DNA of 64,000 nucleotides from Blasia pusilla (GCA_050084515.1 CM114271.1:20646001-20710000), one strand, 5' to 3'. Numbered from the stretch's first letter, positions 8,711-63,911 are shown. Made by a program: numbers and translations. Notes: a model not told the origin generated them from the sequence alone.

Positions 8711-10019
8711 TTCAGAAACAACAAGGGACCAAATTTCAGCAAACAAAACCATTCCACACGTAACTTTTGACGCTATCTGGCCTTAGCTTGCAAGGACTAA
8801 AGTAAATAAATTTCAATGTAAGTCTTTTGGTAATTTTTTGAAAACCTGTGTTTCATAATTTGGAACTTGCTCTTTTTTTGTCCATTTTCTCTTCGTAGTC
8901 ATTACTTCTTTATAACATGCAAACTTTTGTTACACAAGCGGACCACTTACCTCATGGTCGATTCACATTATACCAACCAAGTTCATGTTAGATTTGTTTC
9001 AAGTTATTATTTGCGCAGTTCATTGAATTGGTTTTTTTTTTTCTTCCCTTTGCATTTCTTTTGCCATTTCTTGCTTCCTTCCTTCCTTGGGATATTGTTT
9101 CCTTTCTTTGTCCTTTTTTAGGCTTTTTAATAATAAAGTGGATTTTATTTTAAATACACTTTCCATCTATACTATTATTTGTATTAAATCCTTTATTAAA
9201 CCTTAAAATTTTCTTTCTATATCCTAGTTAATCTTGTATATACTTTATATTGGATTTTTAACTCATGTATGATATTTCCTAAGCCGAAAATGGGCACCAA
9301 ATTTTTTCGTAGTGCTAAAATATCATGATCACAGAAGTACCCATGGGAAAGCCCATCTCAACTAAGGATAGTCCAAACACCCAATCAAGGGCGAAAAAAA
9401 CCTATTAATCCCTTAAATTTGGGGATAAGTGCTCATCTCTTTGATTTATGGTCTATTGAAGGTGAGGTTCATGTTCATATGGTATGTTTCACTATTAGAC
9501 TCAAATTGGCATCTTAAGGCTATGACGAGCACAAAATCATGCGTATACTAGCTTTCTCTATTTGTGCTCCCATGTAGAGAATAGATAGCATCCCACCCCT
9601 TTATCTAAACATTGGTTATTAATTGAAGATTCCAACATAAGTCGAGGCATCAGCCTAAAGGTTGCATCACACAAAACTAGCTCTTTAGGCCACTCCTATT
9701 GTGAGTTGTAAAGTCCAGATTTGGCTCATTTTGGTTGCCTCCATTTGGTAATGTAGACCTTATTAAAGAGTACTAGACCCTTTTTCTTCGTTAGGTCAAC
9801 GATGCTGCCAAGTTCGGTCTGAATCAAGAGAAGTTAGGATGAATGTATTACCAAGCTAAAGAGGCAACTTTCTCACTATATCTTTTATTCCAAATGTATG
9901 ATAGTTTAGTAAGACATTTTTCATTTCCTTTCATTATCTTGCTCATATTTATAAAATTTATTGTGCTTTCAAGCACGTTGTGTAAATCTTCATCAATCAA
10001 GTGATCAATTACATTCTTC

Positions 10020-10919: not shown

Positions 10920-13900
10920 TGTTGGATTCTCAACATCCACTTCTCTGAGCACCATTTATCTGATCGGCCCCCTTTGTATGAGGCGAAGCCTACATTGATG
11001 GTTTCGAATTAGATGTCAAAGGAGTCATAGTAATAGGACGTAGATGGTGTATGGAGTAGTCTTAGTAGATATATGCAAAAAATTTCTATTAATAGAAACG
11101 AAGAAAAATAGGTAAAAAACCCTAGTTTCCCGAGAGTAAAAGAGTCGGGAGCCGTAGCGGTAGTGCATTCTCGTATGTCGAGTTATCTCCATGTTCAGGT
11201 TCCATCGAAGCTCTTCTTTGAGAGCATGGATGGACTAGGCGACTTTGTACTCCAAGTTTTTGTAAAGATTTCAGTGATTTCGTCACTTTCTATTTTCTCA
11301 TATGGTATCAGAGCAGTAGATTTTCCAGTAGTTTGCATCTGGCGATCTAGTGTGTTTGCACAAAATCTTGAGAGATGGCTACTTCTTCGTCAGTTCGTGC
11401 TCTCCCTCCTCTGCTGGGTGAAGGGAAGTTAGATGGGTCTAACTATACATTGTGGAAGTTCAAAATGAGAATTTTCCTTGAATCATTTGAGATGTGGGAG
11501 ACGGCCACTAGGATCGATTTGAATCCATAAGCTACTTTGAGTTTTGCATGTTCATCTTCATCTAGTGATATCGATCATGTTGTATTGCTAGCATGGAAAC
11601 GCGGAAAAACGTTGATGCTCTATATGCAATTGTCACGAATGTAACTCATTCTATCATGACTCTCATTCAACATACGATCACTACTGCTGAGGTGTGGAAC
11701 ATTTTGAAGAATCAGTATGAAACGAGGAATGAGACTCGGATTCAAAATCTGGAGAATGAGCTTACGTCCGAGAAATTTTCAAAAAGAGAAAGCGCAGAGC
11801 AATTTATGACAAGGATCAAGAATCTTCAAGATCAGATGGCGTACGTAGAAATTTCAAAGTCTAGCAAAGATTTGGCACGTCAGTGCATAAGGATTTTTTC
11901 TCCGAGGTATGACAGTTCGGTCACTGCATTAAATACTCAAGTAAGACCCACGCCGCTTACTTTTGAACAATTTAGTGCAATGTTGGTAGAAGAGGAAATC
12001 CGCTTCAAAGCAAGAGATGGAAGTGATACAATATTTAGTGGCAATGTACAGAGAGGTAGAAATCATGATTACAATTCAAATGTCAAGAAGAATTTTCCAA
12101 GGAAAGCCTTCAAATGCTTTTATTGTGGTAAGCTAGATCATCTTATCAAAGATTGTAGAAAGAGGAGTCTGGATGAGAAGAACGATTTTTTAAAACCTAA
12201 GAAGGAGTCTGGAAATTCTGTAGAACTAGGAGAACATGAGATAGATGCTTGGATAGCAATCGAAGAGTTTTGCACACAGGTAGAATATTCCATTAAGTCA
12301 AAGAGTGAAGATGCATGGGTGCTCGATAATGGAGCATCTAGGCATATGACCAATCATAAGGATTGGTACAACTCCTTACAACTTCTACAGGAGCCCATCG
12401 TTGTTATTGTTGGAAATAATGCAAACTACCTCGTAGAAGGGAAAGGCACAATTTCTTTAGTCTCACAAAAAGGAGATGAAAGAAGTTAACTGATGTACCG
12501 TACGTACTAGAGTTGAAGCGTAATTTGATTTCAGTAGCAATATTATGTAATCGTGACTTAGAAGTTCGTTTCAAGAAAACTGGAGCAGTCATTGAGGATG
12601 CCAATGGGAAAGTAGTGGGTGAAGGTATACGACATGGAAATATCTATGAGTTGCATGCTTTCAAGACAAGTGTAGATACAGATCTTAGTAGCAATAAGTT
12701 GTGGCATGAAAGATTTGGTCACCTAAGCTTTCCCTTACTAAGTCAGATGCAGAAATCTGGCATGGTTGCTGATTTATCAACAATTTTTGGAGTGTTGGAT
12801 ACATGTGAAGCTTGTATGATGTGCAAGCAACACCAACAACCATTTCCACAAGAGTCCAGCAATAGAGCAAAGGCTTCTCTAGAGCTGATTCATGCTCACC
12901 TGTGTGGTAAAATGAGAACAGTGGCATTAGATGGTTCTTCCTACTTCTTTTTAGTTGTCGACGATTATAGTAGGAAGATGTGGATGTATTTCCTTCGTGA
13001 TAAGGCAAGTGCTTTTGGAAAATTTAAAGTATGGCACAAGCTAGTTGAGAATGAGACAGGAAAGAAGGTACAGAAGCACCACACCGATCGAGGAGGAGAA
13101 TTCTTATCAATAGAATTCAACAAATATTTTGGGGAGCATGGAATCAAGCGATAGTTAACCATGGCACATACTCCACAACAAAATGGAGTTGTTGAGTGTC
13201 GAAACCATACAGTGATGGAGATGGCAAGATGTATGATGAAAGCAAAAGGTTTGACAAAAGGATTTTGGGCTGAAGTTGTTAATACTGCCGTTTATATTCT
13301 AAATAGAAGTGCTACCAGGTCAGTGCAAGGTATGACTCCTCGTTAATCATACTTAGGTAAGTTACCATCAGTCCAACATTTCATGACTTTTGGTAGTAAG
13401 TGTCTTGTACATATTCCTGAAGCATCCACGACCAAGCTGGAGTCCAAGAGTAGGAAGTGCATCTTCATGGGATACAGTGATGAGTCTAAAGCTTATCGCG
13501 GATGGGGTCCTGAGGCAAAGAAGATGCTTGTGAGTCGTGATGTGGTGTTCTAGGAATAACCTCATCAAGTGACGGATATCAGTGGTCCGTCCACATTATC
13601 ATCAAATGAAGAGATAACCCACTAGAGCACACCACCGATGTTTACACCAGATCATCAAGAAGAAGAATTTGGTGATGATTATAAAGAGTAACCTACTCTT
13701 CCACTACGGTCGTCATACCCTAAATGGATAAATCAACTCTTGGATGGTAAGGATCCACCAGCAACTGATGAAGTTGTTATACATCCAAGGAGATCCAAGA
13801 GACTAGAGGAGCATAATAGAGCTTCCGCACATCTCGTCAACATGGCCTTGATGATATAGATCTTGAAGGTGGAAGGGCCATAATGCTTGGATGAGGCCCT

Positions 13901-40450: not shown

Positions 40451-42949
40451 TTCAAAGGAAGTAAGTTACCAGCCATGAGAGACATCCAAGAAACGTAATA
40501 TTATGGAACTCGCTCCTCCTTATCCAAATGACCTCCACGCACATCGCTATCAACGTCGGAGGAATGGTCATAGAGAAAATCCTCTATCCTGTTGTTGAGG
40601 AACTCATCAATTTCCTCCTTGGGGCCTTTTTTGTTTACCCTCCTCTTTGTGATCCAATTTTCCATCCTTGTCCATGAATCCTCCATCATCCTAGTATTGT
40701 CCCTCGTTGTCACTGGGTGGAGTGTTAGGTCAATCCTCGGTCATTATCCCAACCTCCATCTATTCCTCTAATGAGGATGAAAGGGCACCCTCTACCTTGA
40801 AAAGACCATCCAACTCGTGATGCCTACGAGATGGGAGGATCCTCTTTGTATGGGTGATAGACATATTGGACTTTATTTCGGAGTTAGAGTTTATGCACCC
40901 TAATGAGTAAGTAAATAGCAACATCCACAAAAAACATGGAAAAAAAAATTCTGATACATTTCTACATGACAAATATGTACAATTTTTTCATGGGTCTTAC
41001 ACATTCGCAACTAACAAATGTCTCCTCACCTATCTCTATAATTTTGTAGCAAGAAATGAAATGTTAAAAAATCTTCATCCCAATTTGAACCGAAGTGCTC
41101 ATGTTATCACTCCACATACTTGACCAAATAATTGATTGTACCCAAGTTTGTTACCCTATTGTACAAGATCATCATCAATATAATATCAAAGATGAGAGTT
41201 TCTCATAGTAAGAGCGTGTGGGGAAAAAAGATACTCCAAGAAAGATGGGGTCATATTCACCAACTCCCTCTATATAGTGAGGGAGTATATGACACCAATG
41301 TAAGGGAATAAGATGGGTTTATCATCCATGTCACATTCTTCATTATTGAGTTTCTTGTCTAGTGCAATTATCCCAAGACCCATCCCAAGACCTAAAGTTG
41401 AATATTTCATTGTGTATCTTCTACCCCATACGGTCCATACCTCTATAGACTCAGTATCGGGGATGGTATAAGGACATCCCTATAGGGTCGTATTGCACTA
41501 CAAGTAGTATTCTATTGAATGACATATCAACTCCATAGGATCCTATTTGTTGGTAACGTTAGGTACATACTTAAATATCCAAACTTAAGGTTGTGTCTCC
41601 TTGCTATGGGATCTAATGACTTGATGGCCAACATCAGATGCTCAAGTGCTCACCATTGGTTGGTCGACCTCAATTTTAAGGAAGGCGGTGGTGGCATTGA
41701 TGTTCTGGCCCTATGGACAAGGGCACAAATATTTTCCCCTATCATCCTCAAAGTCTTCATCTCAGATGCAACAAAGCCCTTGCCATTTTCTATTACATAT
41801 TCTCTTGTCTTTTTCTCCCCTTTTGGCATAGGTTTAGCCAAGGAGAGGGTTTTGGGTGTGGTTTGATAAGACCACCACATTGAGAGTGTGTGTTACTCAA
41901 AGTAGCACTCTTGAGCGATACATCTCCACATAAGTGGAGCATTGTGTGTCGTGGATTATAACACAATAGCATGCACTCCACATGTCAGAGTGCTAGGAGC
42001 AAGAGGTATGGTATCATGCTTGGAGGAGGCATTAGAACATCTTTCCTATGCACATGGATATAATCTACAATTTCCTAGTTCCATTGCTATGTATGATAGT
42101 GTGAGATGCGGAAGCAAAAGTAGTGGCTTCAATAGGAGGGCCTACTGTAGTCAACTAGGTAGTAAGGAACCCCATTGTGGAGTAAGGGTAGACCAAATGT
42201 GGCAATTTTGTTGAGCCAATTTGGATATTATGCAATATCAATGGTGAAGAAGTTTTTTCACTTGATGGTGTGACTTATCTTTGAGTAGAGCTTGCTTGTG
42301 TAAGTTGTGTGGGTGGAGCGGCCATCAACATATTTTCAAGCTATCGGGAACAAAATTATATCTGAGTTCAAGAATGGGACCAGAATTGTTTTAGAGTGCA
42401 TGTAAACAATCATCAACATATTCACTTGGGATCGTCGTCATTACACAATGAAAACGGTATCTGAGGCAGTATAGGGGTTCCAATGTCAGAGGAGGAGCAC
42501 AAAACATGGGTGTTGGCTACACCATTACCCACAAACATAAATTTATCCTCATAGATTTTCATCTTACTGAGGGAGTTGGCAATAGCAAGAGACTTGTGTA
42601 GAGACCAAGTGGACTGACTAGTGAAGATGGGCAAGATGCTATATACGAGACTAGTCACGAAATGCAAAGGGCATAAAGACAACCATGAGATGCCAAAAAA
42701 TAAGTCAAAATACAAAGATGGGCACTAGCGATGAGACACATGAAATGTAGGCCCAAGGTCCAAGATGCATTTGCGAAGCCAAGAGTTGCATAAGCTGCAA
42801 AAAGCCTCCGCCAAATCATGTTGATGGATAACTAGTCAAACGTCGATCTGCGGGTCATGAACTACGTTTGGGTTGAGGGCCCAAGGGGGGAAATGAGAAA
42901 GGTGGGGTTGTGGTAAAGAACCCCAAAATTACCTATAGAGGAGGGGATA

Positions 42950-43050: not shown

Positions 43051-45899
43051 CAACTCAAGCCCTTGAACTAGGAACTAGCCATGATGTGTGTGTGGCCGTG
43101 TTTTAGGTTTGAACTAAGGGACGCACCTTTAGGAATTAACCAACGCATTCCAGTTTAGGCAAGCGACTTGGAGAGATTGGCCAAGGATTAGAGAAGAGGA
43201 TTCTTAAGGAGATGATACGCACTTGGGGAGACTCATCTTCAGTAGTGCTTGGTGGCTTTTCGGCTCCTATGGAATGCGCAACCAGTTGAGTCTTTAGGAC
43301 TCAATCTGAGTCTTCCACTTATAAATCTAAAGGTTTGGAGTACTTTGAGGTGAATCTATATGAAGTAGAGGATGGAGTTGATGGACTCTACGATGCTATC
43401 TGGGTCCCTTATGTACTTTACCAAGTATGGGGATATTCTAACTTTTGAGGTCATGGATTATGTGTGGCTGGTCAAAAAGACATAAGAGGAGGCCTTCACC
43501 AATTTGGAAGTCTTAGCCTCAATGGTAAGTTCTTGAAACTGTAGTACTCAAGTAGTCTCTTTTGTTTACTTATTTTCAATAGAGATAATAATTCCACATT
43601 GTGTGTATGGTATAGCATGATATGCTATATCTCACTTTGTGGACTTAAAGTTGAGTAGAGTATGTGTGTCGGTGTGAATTGACTTGGATACCTACACCTC
43701 CTATGATCAGATTGCAAGAGGAGACAAAGATTCAGATGATGGCTCTTACAAGGAGGGTGATGCTGAGGAGATCCTTCTCATAGAATGTCTAGCTATTGTA
43801 AGGCAAAGTAAGAGGTCCATGTTGGATAGTGCACCGAACGGACACATAAGATCTATATGTCGTAGATGTTGCCACATAGGATGGGGAAAAATTTGGCAGG
43901 GGACAGATGCAGGAAACAAGAGATTGGGATCCATGTCTTTGAGCGCTAGATCTTCTACAAGTTCAGTGTAGCCCCGCTATACGACCCACATGCACGCCAA
44001 CAATATAGGTAGGATTTCTAAAACTAATGTTGATGGCATTGCATAGAATTTTATACACAAATTAAAATCTATCACATATGTTAATAGTTCTCCTTTGTTG
44101 CATCATACAACTTTTGTGATTGTGCAATGGGTAAGTAAATCTACTCCACTTCTGCCTCGTATTTGGCTCAGATTCACAATTGGCTTATAGTGCAATTGCA
44201 ACATTGCAAAAAAAAAATTGAGTCTTCTGCACTCAAGCCAAACTAGTGTCATCCGATCAAATATGTTTGCATCGAGTGCAAATGGATATAGTGTCAAACT
44301 TGGTCCACTATCAAAAACGTCCCTAAAATGTTTTTTAGAGATGCGATTTGTGATTTTCTAGGATAGATCTCTACCTTCATGTTAGTGTCTACATTGACCT
44401 TGACATCCTCTTCTGTATTGGAGAAGAAATCACTATCCTGCTCGTCTAAGCAATCCATAAGTAACCCTACTCTACTCCCAAAGCGACCAAATCCACAAGG
44501 GCGAAAATTGATGGATGCAGCATAAACTTGGTTTTTGTCCTTAGAACCCTTCCCCTTGCCTAGGTGCTTAACCACATGCTACACCATACGTAGCCATAAA
44601 TTCTAGTCTAGATTAAAGTTGTTCAAGGCTTCAATTCTAATGGGAAAAAAAAGAATTTGAAATTTGAATACCACCCATGTACAAATGGACATGTCCAAGT
44701 CTGTAAAGACTTACTTACGTGTCATCCTAACATGTAAGATTTCATCTATCAATCTCACAACAAAATGTACCTCATATTATGCAAATTTTTCATAAAGGGC
44801 AATACAACCACTACTACATATGAGAAAAAAATTTGAGTCTCAAGAGCCATCTTATACTCGTAGTACACTTGCAACATACACATAGAATACTCATAAACTT
44901 ACAAGTACAACATTCACGTGAAACTCAAAAAATGAGTTCGTTGCAAGTCTTGCAGTCACGTTTTCCTACTATCATAGCATCATTGTAACATACTAGAAAA
45001 TAAATCTCAATGTCCTTGCAAAGTTGCAAGTATGACAACTATTGGACTCACAAAACTACAAGTCTAAAACTCCACAAAGTACTTGCAAAGTGCTTACACC
45101 CTGGTTTTGCTTTTTAGCAAATAAATTGAAATCAACCATTCCATTCAACGATTCATCCAGAGGCACAAACAACATAGTCAATTATCCTATTCCCCAAAAA
45201 TTCAACATATGTACTTAAGATTTTTTTATTCACAAAGTGATGAGTTGTAGAACTACCGACTTCTCCTATGTTGCTATAAAGGAGGTATATGATTTTGCAC
45301 CTACATTCATGGTACGTGAAAATTCATATACCTCCTCTACTCCTACATGGAGTTGGATAGACATGGAGCCCATACCATGCGATCAAATCCTAGAATATCA
45401 ACATTGTTATAGATTCGACTAGTGGTAGGTGTCACATCCCTACGACTATGATCAAGACTCTCAAATTAAGCATGCATTGCCTAGCGCATTGCACAAATCT
45501 TGCTATCCACATTGAGAGCAAGGCTCGGGGGGGACACTCTATGTATACCTCCTACATTACCTACGACGTTTTGGGGTCGGAAACCCCTAACTTATAAGTG
45601 AAATTTATTTTTTTCCTCCCCCTTACTTACTTTCAAATCGCAATTTTTTAAAAATTATGATCCCTATATTTTGTTAAGTAAATTTGTGTCCTTGATTTGT
45701 TTAGGGGCTTGAAAGTAAAGATAAGTACCCTTCGTGGGGCGGTCTTGTATTGTTGCACTTGATAATAGGCTATCAAAAGCTTTCAGCAATACCCAAGCCA
45801 TTGCCAAACATAGTATGATATGTAAGGTGGAATTATGTGCATGTTTCCATTGAATCAATATTTAGTGCAACTTCCATTTTCCCCATTACTTTGACACCT

Positions 45900-45958
45900 A
45901 TGACGGAGAGGAATTGAACCTCTGTATGGGCAGGATGCTCATATGGCCACTCCGTCAT
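45900..45958 (-). ncRNA. Putative tRNA-like structured element (not a canonical tRNA)
   Basis: Minus strand ATGACGG-AGTGGCC-ATATGAGCA-TCC-TGCCCATAC-AGAGG-TTCAATT-CCTCT-CCGTCAT: 7-bp acceptor-like stem plus 5-bp T stem with 7-nt loop, including the B-box GGTTCAATTCC. Confidence 0.35.
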
Positions 45959-46031
45959 CCCCCTAATCTATCCCCTCCCAAAACTAGCCTATCATAAACT
46001 CAGAAAATGACTTCACACTATAACATGCACA

Positions 46032-49000
46032 TCACTTGGCAAAAGACGACAAGCTGCGGATGTAATCATTGATCACTTGTAAATCACTGTTATCCAATTC
46101 ATATATCCTCGATGTAAGACTTGGTTTCATGGACAAGCTCACATTTGAAATTACCATTTCAATGTCTATATATTGGCCATCACATGCATCATATGTGAAC
46201 AAGGTGTTGCTCTTACCTGTGCGCCGATACCAATTGCACAATATCTGACAAACATTGCCTGTCTGTCCATCTTTTGGGACAGGTCGGTCCAAAAGATCAA
46301 TAGGAGATCTACATCTACCCCATTGACTATGGTATTTTTTTTTTATAAATAGAATGCGACCTAACCAAAACTCTTTTGTAGGAACTATTCTGTTCTCATC
46401 CAAGTCTTTTTGTTTTCTCTTCTTTGACTTACTTGATCTAGTAGAAGGTCCAACTTGTGTAGTAGACTCAAACAAAATAGCTACATCACTTCCAATGTCA
46501 ACATAACAAGTTGGGCAATCTAGATTACTTGGTTCTTTTACCTTACCTATAGTGTAATATGTTTTCTGTGACATCCGTGTTAGCCTATCTTTAGAAATGA
46601 AATGATTGCAGGCCCAATCACTCACCAAAGTGGACTTGTAGTATATTCTGCCTTGAAATGTCACAGTAGGCACAACTTGACAAGGAACTCCATCTGTGCA
46701 CTCCTGCAGAATTGAACTGAATACATGCCTTACCTCATGTCCCAATATTTCTGTCTCTATGGATGGATTGTTATCTGCATCCTCAGCCAAGTCCTCACCA
46801 ATCACTCTAAACTCAACAAAGGTTGGTGCATCACTTTCCCAAGCATCAAGACTATTGAAATCCCTCTGCATTGGGTTATCAATTTTTGTTTCATCAACTC
46901 TAGACTCCTTGGGTGGGCAAGGACCTACTGTTGGTCTATGTTCAACGAAATCCTCAGAGTCATCACATGCAACTGCCTCATTTATAACAGGAGAATCAGG
47001 ACACGTCTCTGCCTCCACATCTTGTGGATGCAACCACCATCGCCTCTGACTTGTAGGCAAAGAGGACCTAGGAGACCTACTCAACGTGCTCAATATTGAT
47101 TTTGCTTCTTCCAAACCCTCTTTAAGGGCATGAACTACCATCTCATTAGTCTGAATTAATGAATAGTCAAACAGATTAGGAGCATCTTCTCCTATACCTA
47201 ACGGATGGAGAGTTCCCCACACGTGATCTTGCTTTGGATGAGACCGGCCAATCTTTAATCCTTCTGGTCCAAATTCCAAGCTAGCCAGTCTATTCAACCC
47301 CACTGCACTATCCAACAAAGACCCAAAATCATAGTTCCGTTCATGGCCACTCATTCCATCTACCTTGCTGAAGAAGATCTCACAACGATCAAATCCTAGG
47401 AGGTGAAATGGAACTTGCAAGTATGGATACTTGTCACGGAAAGCACACATTAGTAATACAATAAAATGGCAAGACATGTTGATATCATGGAAAGCTTGCA
47501 CTAATATCATGTTCTTCTTTGTCACAGATCCTACACTCCCTGTCACAGAATGATCACCATGTCTCAGCCAAAGTCTCCAGAGTCGAAAGAACCACGACAC
47601 TTTAGATGCCAAAACTACACGACTCCTCAAGTCATGCTTACGTGAGAAGAAAATATCAATGTAATTACCACAAACCTCCAAGTATAGTTGGGTCCCTAGG
47701 CTTCTGTCATGGCGAACATCCATTCTCTCAAACATATCCTGCAAACAAGCTTGCACTCTCTTTGAAGCAATTCGTTGAGGCCCAGCCCAATTTTGCCTAT
47801 CAGTCCTATTCACATCATCCCACTTCAAGCCATGCTCGTGAATTTTTTAGTGGTTATAGACATTTGTCACATATGACAAAGATGCATGTTGATTTCCAAG
47901 GACACAAGTAGTTAAGCATCTATCTAATGGATTAATTGCTTTCTTCCCATTGTGAGGTGCATCTTGGTCTCCAAAGCCATACAGATCACCATTAGGAAGA
48001 ATAGAGACAGAATATTGCTATCCTTCCCACCCCACACTATACCTACGTGTAGTAGAGCTAACACCCCTAAAATCCTCCATCATTAGTTTTCTACGACGAG
48101 CATCCATGTCACTAGCATGTCCTAATAACGACCCGACATCAAGCCGACAATACTCATCCTACATTTCTTTCAGCTGCACCCACTGTTGTCTCACCCACTC
48201 TGCACTGAACTTGTTACACGTGACAGTAACACAGATGGCCAATTTAGGCATAGATTCATGAAGAGGATTTACAATGACAACTCTTGCATACATGCCTTTA
48301 CAATAACCTTGGAAAGTACTTACAATCTTGTGGTAGCCCTCATCACCCTCCCCGACCAGTACTTCCATTCCATATGAACATTGGTGTGCCTCTTTGGGCC
48401 CACAAAACCCAATCAGGGTATCATACTTGGCCTCCCATATGTCAGTCATGACTCTTTAATGTTAGGTTGTATTCACAAGGAAAAAAATTCTCAAAGGCTT
48501 ATAATTTGTTGTATTGAATCTCGCTTATAATTTTTTGTATTGAATCTCAAACACTCACCTGGGCCTCTCCTTAATCCTTGTTTCATCCTCTGCAAATATT
48601 ACAGGGACATCTCCTTCAATTCCAAGAGTTTGCTTTGATGCAGACAAATTTCTGCCAACCTCCAAGAATATCTCTTTGCGTAATCCAGCTCTGAAGGGTG
48701 GTATCTTGGCTCTATCTCGCTTCAATGTTTTTAGACTTGGACCACCTAAGTTCTTCTGAAAGCAGTGGGCCACTTGCCTACCACCAAATTGTAGCATTGC
48801 TTGGGCTATGGCTTTGGTTCTCTTACCGTACCTAAAACCCTTGGCAGTCGTGGTTAGATTTCTAGCAACATCTGTCATGAAATCCCATAACCCTTCTTTG
48901 CCACCAAATGCTCCAGTCCTATGCCCATTCACTATATTCCTAAGGAATAGTCTTAGATCCTTCCTATCTGTAGCTACTCCTAATAATTCCTCTAGCTTCC

Positions 49001-49830
49001 TTCGCCTAGTATTCAAGGCAGCTACTTTGGCAGCATACTGTGATAGAAGCCATCGTTGCTTTTGAATTTGGAAGTTAAATTTGCAACGTGCTTTCTGTGC
49101 TCTGTCTTGGTAAGACAATCCAACCGTATCCCCCCACTGGTATCTCTGGCTCCTCTTTGCACTAAAGCTTCTGCTTCCCTGTGCACCCGACCACGAAAAT
49201 CATCCAATCGCTTTACTGACTCACATTTACTACACGTTAGGTTCATAAACCCGCCACCATTGTAAGACAACCTTTCACATTGCTTGTGTCTAAAACAACC
49301 ATGAATGGTCACTATAGACTCTAGAGTAGGATTGTAAACCTGTACACAACAGGTTAACTCACAATCCCACAAGGCCCCTCCCTCTTGATCATCAAGAACA
49401 GCCTTGACATCCATCGGATCTCCTCTCCACTTTACCATTTCATCCCAAAATCCCCAACAAAGCAAACTTAGTCCTGGATCTATTGTTGGATCTGACCCAC
49501 CTTTCCCTGAAGAGCTCCCAACGTTGGACTTATCTCCTGTAAAGAACCTCAAGATTGATCCTGTGATCGGTGTTGATCCCTAGTATCTGCTTTCCTTGGT
49601 CTTCCTCTCTTCTTCCTGCACCTCAATGCAATCTCCACGAAGCCTCCTTGACCTCAGAGGCATCCAAGTGATCGCTAACCATGTGTTGTCTCAAATTATG
49701 ATCCAAATTCAGTTTCTCTGGGCACATGTCTGTATGCAACTTTCCTGGACCCTACACCGACCTTAAATAGGTATGACATATTGGCATGCTTTGAGGATCT
49801 GTGGGAGATGGTGTCACAAAGAACACCTCC
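46032..49830 (-). pseudogene. P-element-superfamily-like DDE transposase with stops, one frameshift (~49080) and a probable intron (~48440-48558)
   Basis: Motifs in P-transposase order: GPSLKTL, FAEDETRIK (~48586), GHASDMDARRRKL (~48109), DQDAPHNGKKAIN (D-x2-H), DRQNWAGPQRIAS, DRCEIFFSKV (~47380). 5' start approximate. Confidence 0.7.
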
Positions 49831-49973
49831 CTATCACCCCCAACATCCTCATTCAATTGGGAGACAATCTCTAGTCCTCTAGAGATTGTCTAGAGGACTA
49901 GAGATCATCCAATGGTTGGAACAAAATCCAATCCAATGGTTGGAACAAAATTTGAACATGAATAAAAAAACAA

Positions 49974-51925
49974 ATCCAATGATTGGAACAAAATTTGAAC
50001 ATGAAAATAAAACAAATCCTTGAAACATTTCTACTAAGAACCATCCTCTACCGTCTTGAACCCTAGTTTTCTTCCCTCCCCCTCAACCAGGGTTCCAAAA
50101 ATCATGAAACATTTTCCAAAGAGGCAATCCAAGCCTAGTAACACAAGAAAAAAATCTAAACTTGAAATGACCACCCACGCATGAAAATAGAAATCGTAAA
50201 CCCTAAAAGTGGTCTCTTATTATTTGTTTGAGTATAGAAGCCAAGAGAGCGGATCTGAACCGTTGAAGTTTGCAACGCATTAAATTCAAAGTCACGTGCC
50301 AAGTTTCAACATCATCCAATGGTTGGAACAAAATTTGAACATGAAAATAAAACAAATCCTTGAAACATTTCTACTAAGAACCATCCTCTACCGTCTTGAA
50401 CCCTAGTTTTCTTCCCTCCCCTTCAACCAGGGTTCCAAAAATCATGAAACATTTTCCAAAGAGGCAATCCAAGCCTAGTAACACAAGAAAAAAATCTAAA
50501 CTTGAAATGACCACCCACGCATGAAAATAGAAATCGTAAACCCTAAAAGTGGTCTCTTATTATTTGTTTGAGTATAGAAGCCAAGAGAGCGGATCTGAAT
50601 CATTGAAGTTTGCAACGCATTTAATTCAAAGGCACGTGCCAAGTTTCAACACCATCCAATGGTTGGAACAAAATTTGAACATGAAAATAAAACAAATCCT
50701 TGAAACATTTCTACTAAGAACCATCCTAAAGTCTTGAACCCTAGTTTTCTTCCCTCCCCTTCAACCAGGGTTCCAAAAATCATGAAACATTTTCCAAAGA
50801 GGCAATCCAAGCCTAGTAACACAAGAAAAAAATCTAAACTTGAAATGACCACCAGGCATGCATGAAAATAAAATCGTAAACCCTAAAAGTGGTCTCTTAT
50901 TATTTTTTGAGTATAGAAGCCAAGAGAGCGGATCTGAACCGTTGAAGTTTGCAACGCATTAAATTCAAAGTCACGTGCCAAGTTTCAACATCATCCAATG
51001 GTTGGAACAAAATTTGAACATGAAAATAAAACAAATCCTTGAAACATTTCTACTAAGAACCATCCTCTACCGTCTTGAACCCTAGTTTTCTTCCCTCCCC
51101 TTCAACCAGGGTTCCAAAAATCATGAAACATTTTCCAAAGAGGCAATCCAAGCCTAGTAACACAAGAAAAAAATCTAAACTCGAAATGACAACCCAGGCA
51201 TGAAAATAAAAATCGTAAACCCTAAAAGTGGTCTCTTATTATTTTTTTGAGTATAGAAGCCAAGAGAGCGGATCTGAACCGTTGAAGTTTGCAACGCATT
51301 AAATTCAAAGTCACGTGCCAAGTTTCAACATCATCCAATGGTTGGAACAAAATTTGAACATGAAAATAAAACAAATCCTTGAAACATTTCTACTAAGAAC
51401 CATCCTCTACCGTCTTGAACCCTAGTTTTCTTCCCTCCCCTTCAACCAGGGTTCCAAAAATCATGAAACATTTTCCAAAGAGGCAATCCAAGCCTAGTAA
51501 CACAAGAAAAAAATCTAAACTCGAAATGACAACCCAGGCATGAAAATAAAAATCGTAAACCCTAAAAGTGGTCTCTTATTATTTTTTTGAGTATAGAAGC
51601 CAAGAGAGCGGATCTGAACCGTTGAAGTTTGCAACGCATTAAATTCAAAGGCACGTGCCAAGTTTCAACACCATCCAATGGTTGGAATAAAACATAACTC
51701 AATGTGAAGATGAAAATGAAACAAACTCTTGAAACATTTCTACTAAGAACCATCCTCTACCGTCTTGAACCCTAGTTTTCTTCCCTCCCCCTCAACAAGG
51801 CTTCCAAAAATCATGAAACTTTTTCCAAAGAGGAAATCCAAGCCCAAGAATAGAAGGGAAAAGTCAAAACTTGAAATGACCACCTATACATGAAAATAAA
51901 AATGTAAACCCTAAATTTGGTCTCA
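49974..51925. repeat. Tandem array, 340-bp unit, ~5.7 near-identical copies
   Basis: The anchor atccaat(g)gttggaa recurs at 49974, 50314, 50654, 50993, 51333 and 51673. Confidence 0.97.
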
Positions 51926-52463
51926 TCTTTTTTTATCTGCCTCTTACTTCCTTAAACATCTTCCATGTACTGACTTATAATTAATAATGCCCTATTGTTA
52001 TTATAAGTGTTTCTCTATATTAAAAATATCCTTAAGTTCTTCCACAAAACTTTATAAGTCTTCTCTGGAATCGAATTAAAAAACCCTATACTTTGTCATA
52101 CGTGATGGGTCTCTTCTGTGGAAGTGAGACCCCCGAGGAGCAAGGAGGTGGAAAACGTTGAGGTTGATGTCAACATGGATGTTGACATCAACCTCAACAT
52201 TGTTTTCCTCCTCAATCTCAAATTTTGAGTAGATTTATAACTCCAATTTTCTTACAAGCCTCCTCTCGGACCTTCTCTACCCATCACTTGTATCATGCAT
52301 GCACTTCCTTGAATTTCGGTCTTATATATTGCAGAAGCTTGTATTCAATAAGTCAATCTTTCCCAAGTCCTTACTGATGTGCATCCAAACATACTTATAT
52401 TAGCCATGGTTTTGGTCAACCACCTTTTCCTCTTCCAAGTCTAGATCTTGGGTGATCCTTTAA

Positions 52464-60500: not shown

Positions 60501-61751
60501 CTGTTACGAAAATCGAATCTCTCCATGTCAACACGATTCGCTGCATTTTCCCACCGTCTTTGATGGAACCGGGACACATGTATCGCATTAAATGGTAAGT
60601 ACTGCTCAATTATGCCCGACGCGTCATCTTCAACTCCTAGGGTCCTAGGTCGGCCCTGGCAGCACAAGTCAAATCAAATCCTATTCATGGTCAACCACCC
60701 GCAAGTACATGTCACACACCGATCTGCAGAACGGTCCTTACTGCACAGACTCTATTCTCTTCGTATTCCTCGGCCAAAGTAGACTCGTGTCATCTCAAAT
60801 ACTGTCATCGCTATGGACGGAAAGAAGCCAGCTTGTCGATGGTAAGAATGATAATGCACTTAGATGTAGTGTGTGTACTGTCACTGCCAGAATGCTCGGT
60901 CAGGATTTTCAGCGTTTTCATTGCTCATACGAGAGAATTTTCAAGACAGTCAAAAATCGTCAATCTAGCTGGTTTACTTATCACCAAAGGAACTCCGTTT
61001 TCGCGTCGGAAATTTGACTAAAGTTTCAGATTTCATCCGGAAATCACACGATTTTGACCGGCTGCTTTTACAAAAAATGCCAGTTCTTGCCGAGGATAGC
61101 CCTGCCGTACGGTGGCTTGTTTCCTCCGGTCGCTAGAGCTTTCGGATGAGCCGGGAACGAAGATTTTTTGTCCCTTAGAGTAGGACTCACGTCAACATGG
61201 TGATGAGACAGAAGTGGTCAAACATTTCCATCGTGTCCAAGAAACCAGAATAACACATCCCATTTAGGAACGACAGCTTTACTTCATGTCCGGCCGTTAG
61301 CGTTAGCAGCGTATGGCATGTGGTAAAGTATCTGGAAACAGGACAGCAGATCCGAATGGTCTGATTGCTAACGTGACGGGACAGTAATAGACGAGTCGCT
61401 AAACTGGCTCGAAGGTGGCTATACTTCCATTGTACCTACTTGGACTATTTTCTTCGGCGAAGCAGACGGGATTAGTGATAGCCTCAATATCTTCTTTAAA
61501 ACGGCTAGACTAAATTTTCTTCCTCCTCATCATCCCGAGAGAGAATATCGAACGCTCTACATACAACCTATTGATATATCATCGTACAATTCTATATTTC
61601 TCGGGTCTAAAGCATGAGAGGATATCGAGCGTTTCGGATCACTCGTGTTAAGATGTTCCCAGGGGACTCGAAGAACGGTGCTATGGCACAACCCCCATCG
61701 CCTGCCCGCTCGCAGTTGGTATGAGGCTCTGACCTAAGTGTTGCGAACCGA

Positions 61752-63911
61752 TTACGATTGGGGAACGCTGCCATGGTCATCACCGCCACCATCGCCCCCG
61801 TGATCACCATGATCACCTTCATCTCCACCTCTGCCCCGATCATTTCCGTCGTGGTTATCATTGCCGTTGTTATCGTTTCCACCCCGGTTGTCGTTGCCTC
61901 CATGGTCGTTACCGCCCTCATTGTTGTCACCGCCCTGATTGTTGTTGCCTCCTTGATTGTTGTTACCGCCCTGATTGTTGTTACCGCCCTGATTGTTGTT
62001 ACCGCCCTGATTATTGTTGCCGCCCTGATTATTGTTGCCTCCCTGATTGTTGTTGCCTCCCTGATTGTTGTTACCACCTTGATTGTTGTTGCCGCCCTGG
62101 TTATTGTTGCCGCCCTGGTTATTGTTGCCGCCCTGATTATTGTTACCGCCCTGATTGTTGTTGTTACCTCCCTGATTGTTGTTGTTACCGCCCTGATTGT
62201 TGTTTCCGCCCTGATTGTTGTTGCCGCCCTGATTGTTGCTGCCGCCTTGGTTATTGTTGCCGCCCTGATTATTGTTGCCACCTTGATTGTTGTTGCCGCC
62301 CTGGTTGTTGTTACCGCCCTGGTTTCCGGCACCGCCCACGTTGACACGGGTGCAGTCTGTTCGAATCTGACCTTGACCTCCGGTCAACACGTTGAATTGA
62401 GTCAACTTACTGTACGCCCCCGAGAAGACGCTGAAGAATTGATTTGGATTAGCTGCGAAGGTCCGGATGTATCCAGATGTGCGGGGATCACTTCCGAGGG
62501 CGTCGTCGATGGAGAGTAGAGCCCTTGCCGCGATAACGTCTTTGAAATACTGACTGTCGAATATGAGATTCGTCTGGTCGTTTTGGACCACAGTGTTGGG
62601 ATTATTCAGACCTTGCGGACACTGTGCTCTGAGGCCGGTTCCGTAGAGGGCATTCTTTTGTAGAGTTGAGTCGAATTGAGGGTACAGACGATTCTCGAAG
62701 TTCGCGCAGTGAGCAACTCCTACCGTGTGAGAACCTGATTCACAATAGAAATATCAAATTAAGTACGCGACGAGGGCAGAGTCCAACGAGGCATGCATCG
62801 TTTCACCCCTCGGCAGATCGGGATATGAGTAGCAAAATGATTTCTTTCTAAAATAGTGCGGACCCATCTCATCATTTGAAGTACTCGGAACCGTGGCTGG
62901 GCTCACCTAGTAGCGCGACTGTCTCTTGGTCACTCATACCCATCTGAGCGAAAGTGCTCAACACGGTGGAAACGGAGGCGTCGCCAGGAAGAAGAGAGGA
63001 TTGTGCAAGACTTGTGCTAGCGGACGAGCCGTCTTCACGACCGAGCGGAATTGCGATAGTAGGTCCTCCAGCCTGAACAAGAAAATTCATGAGTCGTTGA
63101 AATCCCCGCCTAATCCAGTGGCAATGCCGGGGATTCACAGGAACGAAACGAGACGGAAATTGAGGACCATACGGTTGTCAAAAGCGAAGGAAACTCACCA
63201 AGGCCACTGCCTCGCGACCGGCCAAAGCCACGATATCAGCGCATGAGACCACACCGGGGCAAGTGCTCTCCAATCTTTGTTTGATGGCATTGATGACGTT
63301 CAAGTTCCCGATTCCCACATTCCTCTCAGCATTCTTCTCATCCGTGATTCCGGCCCCGTCCGAATTCAGCATGATAGATGCATCGCAACCCTGGAAAACA
63401 GAAAATGACATCACAGACTTCAGCACTATTCAGACATTCGAGGAAGTGTAACGCCCTCAAAAGAGAAGATCTGATCATACTCTGTCGCGTCTAGTTGTCA
63501 AGACAATGTGAAGCCTACATCAAGTCATCCTTACACCGGGTGGTTTACTAACACACTCCTACGAACTGTAATGAACACAGAGTTGGTCGTGAGCGATCAA
63601 CAGCGGAGAGCGCTAACTGAAACAACCCGCATTACAACGTAGCGAAGTCACGTCAGACATGAGATATGCGTTACCTGGACAGCACAGTCATGGAAGGCAA
63701 GTCGGAGAAGGGAAGCAGGAGCAGTGAGTACGTTCAGCAGATTGATTTGCTGAATGAAAGTAGTCTTCACTATGGACTCTACGTTCGGGCACGAGCTAGT
63801 GTAGTAACCAGCGCTCAGCTGGGCATTCATTCCTCGAAATCGACAACTCAACGCCAACACGAAGACCATGAGACAGAGAGTCATTTTACATGGCTCGTGC
63901 CGGGCTGCCAT
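61752..63911 (-). CDS. Class III secretory heme peroxidase with a long Gly/Asn/Gln C-terminal extension; 4 exons: 63675-63911, 63199-63390, 62907-63072, 61752-62734
   Basis: Signal peptide, QLSAGYYTSSCPNVE, LLRLAFHDC (distal Arg/His), GCDASIML, CPGVVSCADIVALA, LGREDG, VALLGSHTVGVAHC (proximal His), FDSQYF, GQIRTDC. Typical 3-intron layout with 192- and 166-nt internal exons. Confidence 0.96.
61850..62335 (-). repeat. Coding 18-bp tandem repeat encoding (GGNNNQ)n, about 21 units plus degenerate units
   Basis: Visible directly in the DNA and in the 61752-62591 translation. Confidence 0.97.

Follow-up and report, generated by a model that had tools for sequence, protein, structure and literature searches.

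A decayed element of a probable P-like DNA transposon family in Blasia pusilla

Within a stretch of 64,000 nucleotides from Blasia pusilla (GCA_050084515.1 CM114271.1:20646001-20710000; hereafter the window, with positions counted from its first letter), an element of 6,614 bp spans positions 45524-52137. It carries the remains of one long gene on the minus strand that resembles a transposase gene, and it is quite probably a decayed, non-autonomous copy of a family of P-like cut-and-paste transposons. An earlier note, made from the sequence alone, had described it as a complete P-element-like DNA transposon with non-canonical termini.

The element and its decayed gene

The element is enclosed by a perfect 8-bp target site duplication (TSD), GAGCAAGG, and has 8-bp inverted ends, CTCGGGGG at 45524-45531 and CCCCCGAG at 52130-52137; duplication and ends were found just where the earlier note had placed them. 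The terminal inverted repeat (TIR) is perfect over these 8 bp only, and 12 of the 16 outermost positions match (CTCGGGGGGGACACTC compared with CTCGGGGGTCTCACTT). At the left junction, ttgaGAGCAAGG is followed by CTCGGGGGGGACACTC; at the right one, GAAGTGAGACCCCCGAG is followed by GAGCAAGGaggtgg. Within the 64 kb of the window, three occurrences of the terminal 8-mer or its complement were counted, of which two are the element's own ends; no further copy of the element was found there.

The boundaries were scanned for in 16 kb around the element as perfect 8-bp TSDs combined with 8-bp inverted ends, one end mismatch being permitted. The scan gave the true pair and one decoy, for which about 0.7 pairs per 16 kb are expected by chance according to our own arithmetic estimate. 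The decoy, with the TSD TCATCCTA at 40686-40693 and 48154-48161 and the perfect 8-bp inverted sequence GTATTGTC, was rejected; one of its ends falls within the transposase gene. The TSD and the 8-bp inverted ends are not outstanding in a blind scan and, taken alone, are weak evidence. The boundaries are nevertheless real, because 45524 is exactly where reads of many copies part from one another and the termini are shared by unrelated contigs (see below). An inverted repeat with 34-nt arms at 52143-52212 (85% complementary, 2-nt spacer) begins within the right TSD copy, so that the insertion point of the element lies at the border of a sequence able to form a hairpin.

The gene was read in a single minus-strand frame from 49199 to the stop codon at 46032-46034. 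All five motifs that had been noticed before were recovered, and in the same order, namely PSLKTL (48723-48740), AEDETRIK (48570-48593), HASDMD (48102-48119), DQDAPH (47952-47969) and CEIFFS (47367-47384). The decay is evident from in-frame stops at 48159-61, 48018-20 and 47847-49, a frameshift near 49055 and further stops upstream at 49752-54 and 49623-25. The 105-nt segment with GT..AG borders listed in Table 1 is a candidate intron, because homologues lack it and read straight across (AEDETRIKxRVxWE..).

The stops were compared with the reads of X14, a raw whole-genome shotgun run with the same species label as the window, of which about 1 in 100 was read. At position 48160, where the window has T, 71 of 73 X14 reads carry C, and at 48019 the same difference was seen in 79 of 83 reads. 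Most copies therefore read TGG (Trp) at both places, and the two stops concerned (48159-61 and 48018-20) are private to the window copy. In an alignment of 13 relatives (A2), 15 of the 145 invariant columns are altered in the window copy. Met stands in place of the Gly that separates the two Asp of SDGD, and the acidic residues are retained.

Table 1. Features of the element and its flanks (positions in the window; a dot marks features without strand).
Feature	Position	Strand	Remarks
Left TSD copy, GAGCAAGG	45516..45523	.	identical to 52138-52145
TIR near the 3' end of the gene, CTCGGGGGGGACACTC	45524..45539	+	X14 read ends; motif also at ends in L003, L002, L009 and L010
Non-coding subterminal region downstream of the gene	45540..46031	-	no protein-family homology; X14 depth 31-70
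Main part of the decayed gene	46032..48453	-	HASDMD (putative second catalytic Asp region), DQDAPH (D-x-x-H), DRQNW, helical insertion, CEIFFS (putative catalytic Glu), acidic linker, beta-rich C-terminal domain
Candidate intron or in-frame insertion	48454..48558	-	105 nt, GT..AG, AT-rich, 26-bp tandem duplication, four stops
Upstream part of the decayed gene	48559..49886	-	AEDETRIK (putative first catalytic Asp), putative helix-turn-helix region with PSLKTL, Cys-rich region, remnant of the second zinc finger
Nested palindromes	49862..49905	.	I17: 17-nt arms, 100% complementary; at the point of departure from most other copies
Short 24/43-bp repeats, then 340-bp tandem array	49907..51924	.	in place of the gene's 5' third
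Subterminal region and TIR near the 5' end of the gene	51925..52137	-	read inwards CTCGGGGGTCTCACTTC; X14 depth 17.5 in bin 51976-52217, 1.6 outside
Right TSD copy, GAGCAAGG	52138..52145	.	pairs with the left copy

Copies in reads and related elements on contigs

The X14 depth was 56-88 across 45926-49555 compared with 0.58 and 1.62 in two flank bins, which corresponds to a ratio of 35-150 fold depending on the flank bin chosen. From this ratio, the family comprises very roughly 50-100 copies of at least 88% identity in one plant genome. Fifteen X14 reads had loose ends before 45524 with an agreement of 0.44 among them; the flanks are thus dissimilar, and many copies with different flanks end at this position. 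Altogether, 2,388 X14 reads were aligned, 59 of them with at least 99% identity, 876 with 95-99%, 1,118 with 90-95% and 335 with less than 90%. The transposon family is old, diverged and present in many copies. Of 589 variable places in X14, 374 are transitions, which fits the decay of methylated repeats.

The family may still be active in the host of the window; the two read-checked stops are private to the window copy, and most copies have Trp codons instead. The RNA run X17 yielded 58 matching reads, all less than 95% alike and 56 of them matching only partly. They matched short conserved stretches at 47786-47819 (including the DRQNW codons) and at 49152-49205 and continued beyond them into unrelated sequence with an agreement of 0.99-1.0. 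We take these reads to derive from divergent relatives and not from expression of the window copy. A divergent relative of the transposase thus seems to be transcribed in the same species.

Related elements were found on metagenome contigs. L003 contains an element of 6,096 bp with the TSD GTTTTCAT and ends CTCGGGGGGGTCACTC that are identical on both sides and share the form CTCGGGGGGG.CACTC with the window element. It carries one uninterrupted open reading frame (ORF) of 1,493 aa that belongs to the same protein family. One end each of the type CTCGGGG..CACT was observed on L002, L009 and L010. In L001, a perfect 15-bp inverted sequence, CCCGGGGGGAGCACT, at 308-322 and 9051-9065 surrounds an intact ORF of 1,514 aa. 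Seven ends on five sequences start with CTCGGGG, and the ends of L001 with CCCGGGG; the terminal signature C(T/C)CGGGG...CACT is hence a property of the family. The suggestion that this is a DNA transposon, with a TSD of 8 bp and a terminal signature of its own, held up. The termini of the window copy recur in five further element ends on four of these contigs. TSD/TIR candidates on L020/L022 and L004-L007 were dropped, being located within the gene match, with poor extended ends and one sequence repeated across assemblies. On L010, the element end at 1-52 (CTCGGGGAGTTCACTACG, read inwards) abuts a fragment of the transposase gene of another copy at 56-997, an arrangement that suggests a nested insertion.

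The window copy is rearranged inside. Its similarity to transposases ends at 49886, which corresponds to residue 302 of the 1520-aa relative P0033 (tblastn E 0.024; aligned by eye), the decayed stretch ISRGLEIVSQLNED...CPEKLNLDHNLRQH aligning to IADGIDIVKKVNAD...CPPKRNLEHILTAH of this protein. The gene is thus short of about 290 N-terminal codons. X14 reads departing at 49883 (15 reads) and 49886 (25 reads) continue into another common sequence with an agreement of 0.96 and 0.90, respectively. Its reverse complement, translated by eye in the frame of the gene, gives H-R-P-H-F-D-H-G-E-A and resembles ..TPEDHAKL.. before residue 302 in P0033; other copies therefore probably retain the N-terminal coding region that is missing here, judging from 30 letters. 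The description of the element as complete consequently applies to both ends and not to its interior, where a tandem array takes the place of the first codons.

The 340-bp array (49974-51924) consists of 5.7 units with 95% matches, and each unit includes the near-palindromic ATCCAATGGTTGGAACAAAAT. The X14 depth was only 0-6 across 50040-51491, compared with 56-88 in the gene body, so that the array is private to the window copy or to few copies. The palindromes at the point of departure look like a scar of repair or template switching. In Drosophila, interrupted gap repair of P elements yields internal deletions with filler or palindromic sequence, and by analogy the window copy is likely to have originated in this way.

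The protein family and its predicted fold

A 604-aa ORF of the window retrieved 30 relatives. Of those that are named, hypothetical proteins from the liverwort Riccia sorocarpa come closest, with 42% identity; full-length relatives measure 1,475-1,530 aa. Named relatives were also found in Calypogeia fissa, Adiantum nelumboides, Amphiura filiformis and Clytia hemisphaerica, so that the hosts comprise liverworts, a fern, a brittle star and a hydrozoan; none of these proteins has a label other than hypothetical, uncharacterized or unnamed. With a profile built from 37 members, 4,061 cluster representatives were matched at E ≤0.001, 627 of them at E ≤1e-30, among 1.84 billion proteins.

Across 47 diverse members, D71/E72, S189/D190/G191/D192, D237/H240/K243/K244 and G427/D429/E432 are fully or almost fully conserved. 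The conserved columns spell D-E-T (AEDET), S-D-G-D, D..H..KK and G.D..E (GSDxCE). In the D-x-x-H motif that follows the second Asp, D237 is nearly invariant and H240 invariant; the window reads DQDAPH here. The Pfam families PF21787, PF21788 and PF21789 had no match in six window ORFs, in sets of 10, 7, 5 and 3 relatives or, at E ≤10 and among the first 25 of 36 families listed, in the 47 members. A search of the window against Rfam gave 0 matches.

Upstream of the core, conserved modules of the forms C-x2-C-x26-H-x5-H and C...C...H-x5-H lie behind the N-terminal domain and are followed by a Cys-rich region and the putative helix-turn-helix. When the N-terminal 450 aa of the L003 protein were modelled, the Foldseek matches were weak, the best one (E 8.2e-3) being ubiquitin-like and covering the first ~80 residues. 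For this part (L003 875-1120), a ubiquitin-like beta-grasp was predicted with a pLDDT of 82-94; to our knowledge, such a domain is unusual for a transposase. At the other end, the model of the relative P0038 has a beta-rich domain behind an acidic linker. The PTM/DIR17-like Tudor domain PF21743 was detected in two distant members, P0068 (residues 1066-1119, E 9.7e-10) and P0236 (residues 1160-1217, E 1.6e-8). It was rejected as the common C-terminal domain of the family and is regarded as a lineage-specific extension on these two proteins, where it may be a chromatin-targeting module.

The AlphaFold2 model of P0038, with a pLDDT of 80-98 over residues 300-820, was compared with solved structures in the PDB by Foldseek, as the earlier note had recommended with the Drosophila P transposase in mind. 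That transposase ranked first, with E 4.6e-9, a TM score (target) of 0.61 and a probability of 1.00 over 537 columns for 6p5a_A, and E 4.9e-9 and a TM of 0.60 for 6pe2_A. The next families followed five orders of magnitude behind (E of at least 7.5e-4, TM ≤0.35), namely RAG1 with its best-ranked chain 9jpu_C (E 7.5e-4, TM 0.25), the hAT transposase Hermes, 2bw3_A (E 7.8e-4, TM 0.24), and Transib, 6pqx_A (E 2.7e-2, TM 0.32). Among solved structures, the predicted transposase is hence nearest to that of the P element by a wide margin.

The model places AEDET on a strand and SDGD immediately behind a strand; a helix begins at D-x-x-H, and CEIFFS is part of a helix. Between D-x-x-H and CEIFFS lie some 165 residues (527-690 of P0038) that are helical throughout and inside the 537-column match to P. 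This order of strands and helices together with the helical stretch corresponds, in the prediction, to an RNase H core that is interrupted by a P-like insertion domain. Protein-atlas neighbours with a Pfam family were all P/THAP9-like (0.87-0.94 for P0004 and 0.95 for the core alone). PF12017, the helix-turn-helix of P transposases, weakly matched four of the 47 members, the most of any Pfam family among the matches listed. One of these four was located when two batches of 10 were searched: in P0158, residues 200-239 match on the column GPSxxTxxR / LPDQRT, ~60 residues before AEDET. The counterpart of this LPSxRTL-type motif in the window reads GPSLKTLKR.

Weighing of the readings and comparison with known systems

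If the window element is a P-like transposon, its family would be a multi-copy class II transposon with terminal inverted repeats in a plant genome, and the window copy a dead and internally rearranged member. The transposase would be a DDE enzyme with an RNase H-like core of the P/THAP9 fold, in which a helix-turn-helix is followed by a core that is split by a large all-helical insertion. AEDET would provide the first catalytic Asp, SDGD the second one, followed by D-x-x-H, and C-E-IFFS the Glu. By analogy with P elements, the enzyme would bind the C(T/C)CGGGG...CACT termini, perhaps with the help of its fingers, and would excise the element by staggered double-strand cuts, possibly in a GTP-dependent manner. 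Insertion would occur by an 8-bp staggered attack, and repair of the stagger would leave the 8-bp duplication. Intact relatives encode one protein of ~1,500 aa with the predicted ubiquitin-like domain and C2H2-type fingers upstream of the core and the beta-rich domain downstream. The window copy would be immobile by itself, having lost ~290 N-terminal codons and carrying stops, a frameshift, changed invariant residues and the 340-bp array. As it kept both ends, a transposase from another copy could in principle mobilise it. The data directly demonstrate the boundaries, the copy number, the conserved termini, the fold and the decay; the chemistry, GTP dependence, finger binding to DNA and present activity are inferences.

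Several results weigh against this assignment. At threshold, Pfam offered no explanatory family in the six window ORFs or in any relative scanned (sets of 10, 7 and 5, the 47-member set and 3 more). The best PF12017 match had an E of 0.0063 and 17.3 bits compared with a cut-off of 23, and 43 of the 47 members had none. Searched against PDB sequences, the family profile A1 gave 0 matches at E ≤10 and the profile A3 19 weak, spurious low-complexity matches (E of at least 0.082), none of them to a transposase. A THAP domain (PF05485) was found neither in seven full-length relatives (E ≤0.1) nor in P0207 nor, among the matches listed, in the 47 members. The 44 Foldseek matches listed for the N-terminal 450-aa model likewise included no THAP; they were ubiquitin-like or other folds, with E always above 0.001. 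The termini begin with C(T/C)CGGGG and not with CA as canonical P termini do (CATGATG). No solved transposase of Kolobok, MuDR, Dada or Novosib was among the Foldseek matches, and the fold search cannot rank P closer than these. The catalytic Asp, Asp and Glu would correspond to those of P on the grounds of secondary structure and conservation. The 8-bp flanks of the L001 element differ (GTTCATAC compared with ATCCACTT), so that two of the three elements with both ends, those of the window and of L003, have an 8-bp TSD. Finally, no empty-site joint (45523-52146) was found in the reads and contigs of four runs, where the raw-read coverage of single-copy sequence is about 1x.

The family could alternatively be a separate superfamily or a member of Kolobok, MuDR/MULE, Dada or Novosib, with P merely the nearest solved fold. 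No Pfam model fits it and its N-terminal architecture is unlike that of P. Novosib in particular, first discovered in a green alga, generates TSDs of 8 bp. In the portion of PMC5751038 at hand, the cores of Kolobok, Novosib, Dada, Sola, Zator, Academ and KDZ are described as being without Pfam similarity, and the RNase H domain of Novosib as poorly defined and without a Pfam model. The D-x-x-H motif, according to an excerpt of PMC9587614, is common to hAT, MuDR, Kolobok and Dada and is not specific to P. We consider this alternative unlikely, given that the TM of 0.61 to P spans the core as well as the insertion domain, that the Pfam-bearing atlas neighbours are P/THAP9-like with no MULE or hAT among them, and that the weak PF12017 matches fall at the right position. 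Kolobok makes a TTAA-specific 4-bp TSD (the same excerpt of PMC9587614), which is ruled out by the 8-bp TSDs GAGCAAGG and GTTTTCAT. MULE had no Pfam match in the 47 members among the matches listed.

A divergent element of the hAT superfamily would likewise account for the 8-bp TSD; hAT elements often have BED-kind fingers and a catalytic Glu in an S..E..FS-like motif. The C-x2-C...H-x5-H fingers of full-length relatives and GSDxCEIFFS recall these features, and Hermes is present among the Foldseek matches. It fell, however, far behind P in both E and TM; the atlas neighbours contain no hAT cluster, and the termini are not of the hAT type. Nor was a hAT dimerisation or BED domain matched by Pfam in the members scanned (seven full-length relatives and, among the matches listed, the 47 members). 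A hAT origin is consequently very improbable. Hardly credible is the idea that the flanking repeats arose by chance around a decayed host gene or a domesticated THAP9-like gene. The decoy pair of equal quality in the same 16 kb and the TIR that is perfect over 8 bp only speak for it. The depth of 35-150 times that of the flanks ends at the proposed boundaries, however, L003 has the same termini and an 8-bp TSD around an intact ORF, and two checked stops are private to the window copy, which argues against a host gene.

The reading of the element as a decayed copy from a P-like family is thus preferred, and the data partly support a family that is P-like by fold and anatomy without being a canonical P element. 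For the P-related lineage proposed in the earlier note, this means that fold, order of motifs and 8-bp TSD agree, whereas strict membership in P does not follow, with no Pfam P model at cut-off and no THAP domain. More tentatively, and with considerable doubt on our side, the family could represent an ancient, unnamed transposase clade that is a superfamily-level sister to P/THAP9. It would be marked by the ubiquitin-like domain and C2H2-type fingers, the C(T/C)CGGGG..CACT signature and the C-terminal beta domain, would have a range that takes in liverworts and ferns as well as echinoderms and cnidarians, and would be unseen by Pfam-based annotation.

P elements are already known in the green lineage, and the novelty of the present family is narrower than had been implied. 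In the available part of PMC9977147, P-2_cRei is a curated element that is active in Chlamydomonas, with one excision and one insertion in mutation-accumulation lines, and an extract of PMC3964958 reports P-type miniature inverted-repeat transposable elements from 'lower plants'. A screen of 1,007 plant genomes used Pfam models for P and, in the section of the article seen (PMC12973397), found recent activity in only seven other superfamilies. A family without Pfam matches is missed by the design of such a screen, and its being dark to Pfam would explain why P-like elements have gone unannotated in land plants. No paper describing a P element in liverworts or bryophytes was found in open-access full text, a scope that leaves Repbase Reports outside; an existing Repbase or Dfam entry for the family is a real possibility. 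Plant surveys that depend on Pfam to recognise DNA transposons are blind to the present family. A profile for it would close this gap in annotation and widen both the range and the domain diversity known for P-like transposases. Intact elements such as that of L003 could be used to ask whether the GTP dependence of P and its unusual staggered cleavage are ancestral traits.

Elsewhere in the window, a remnant of a Ty1/copia long terminal repeat retrotransposon with gag, zinc knuckle, GAG-pre-integrase and integrase core domains lies at 11569-13154. An ORF with a peroxidase domain (PF00141, E 2e-18) was found on the minus strand at 61752-62753; several long ORFs on both strands overlap at 61607-62753. 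These two features, like the liverwort relatives, are compatible with a land-plant host, probably a bryophyte, without being proof of it.

Among known systems, P-2_cRei of Chlamydomonas reinhardtii is likewise a cut-and-paste element of the P superfamily in the green lineage; its host is a chlorophyte alga and not a land plant, and it may belong either to the present Pfam-dark family or to canonical P. Hermes (2BW3) and other hAT elements have in common with the present family the 8-bp TSD, the C/DxxH motif and a large insertion in the RNase H fold, but the structural match is much weaker than that to P. The best structural match is the P transposase of Drosophila (6P5A/6PE2). In the predicted layout of the present family, a candidate helix-turn-helix, first Asp, second Asp, D-x-x-H, long helical insertion and Glu in ..E.FFS follow one another as in P/THAP9 proteins, and the TSDs of the window element and of L003 agree with the 7-8 bp expected of P elements. 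In contrast to P/THAP9 (PF12017, PF21787, PF21788, PF21789), the present family reaches the threshold of no Pfam P model. Its relatives have the ubiquitin-like fold and C2H2-type fingers at the N-terminus in place of THAP, as well as an extra beta-rich domain at the C-terminus. With ~1,500 aa, the protein is about twice as long as the P transposase (751 aa), and the starts of AEDET and SDGD are 120 residues apart, a wider spacing than the ~70 residues between the two Asp motifs of P.

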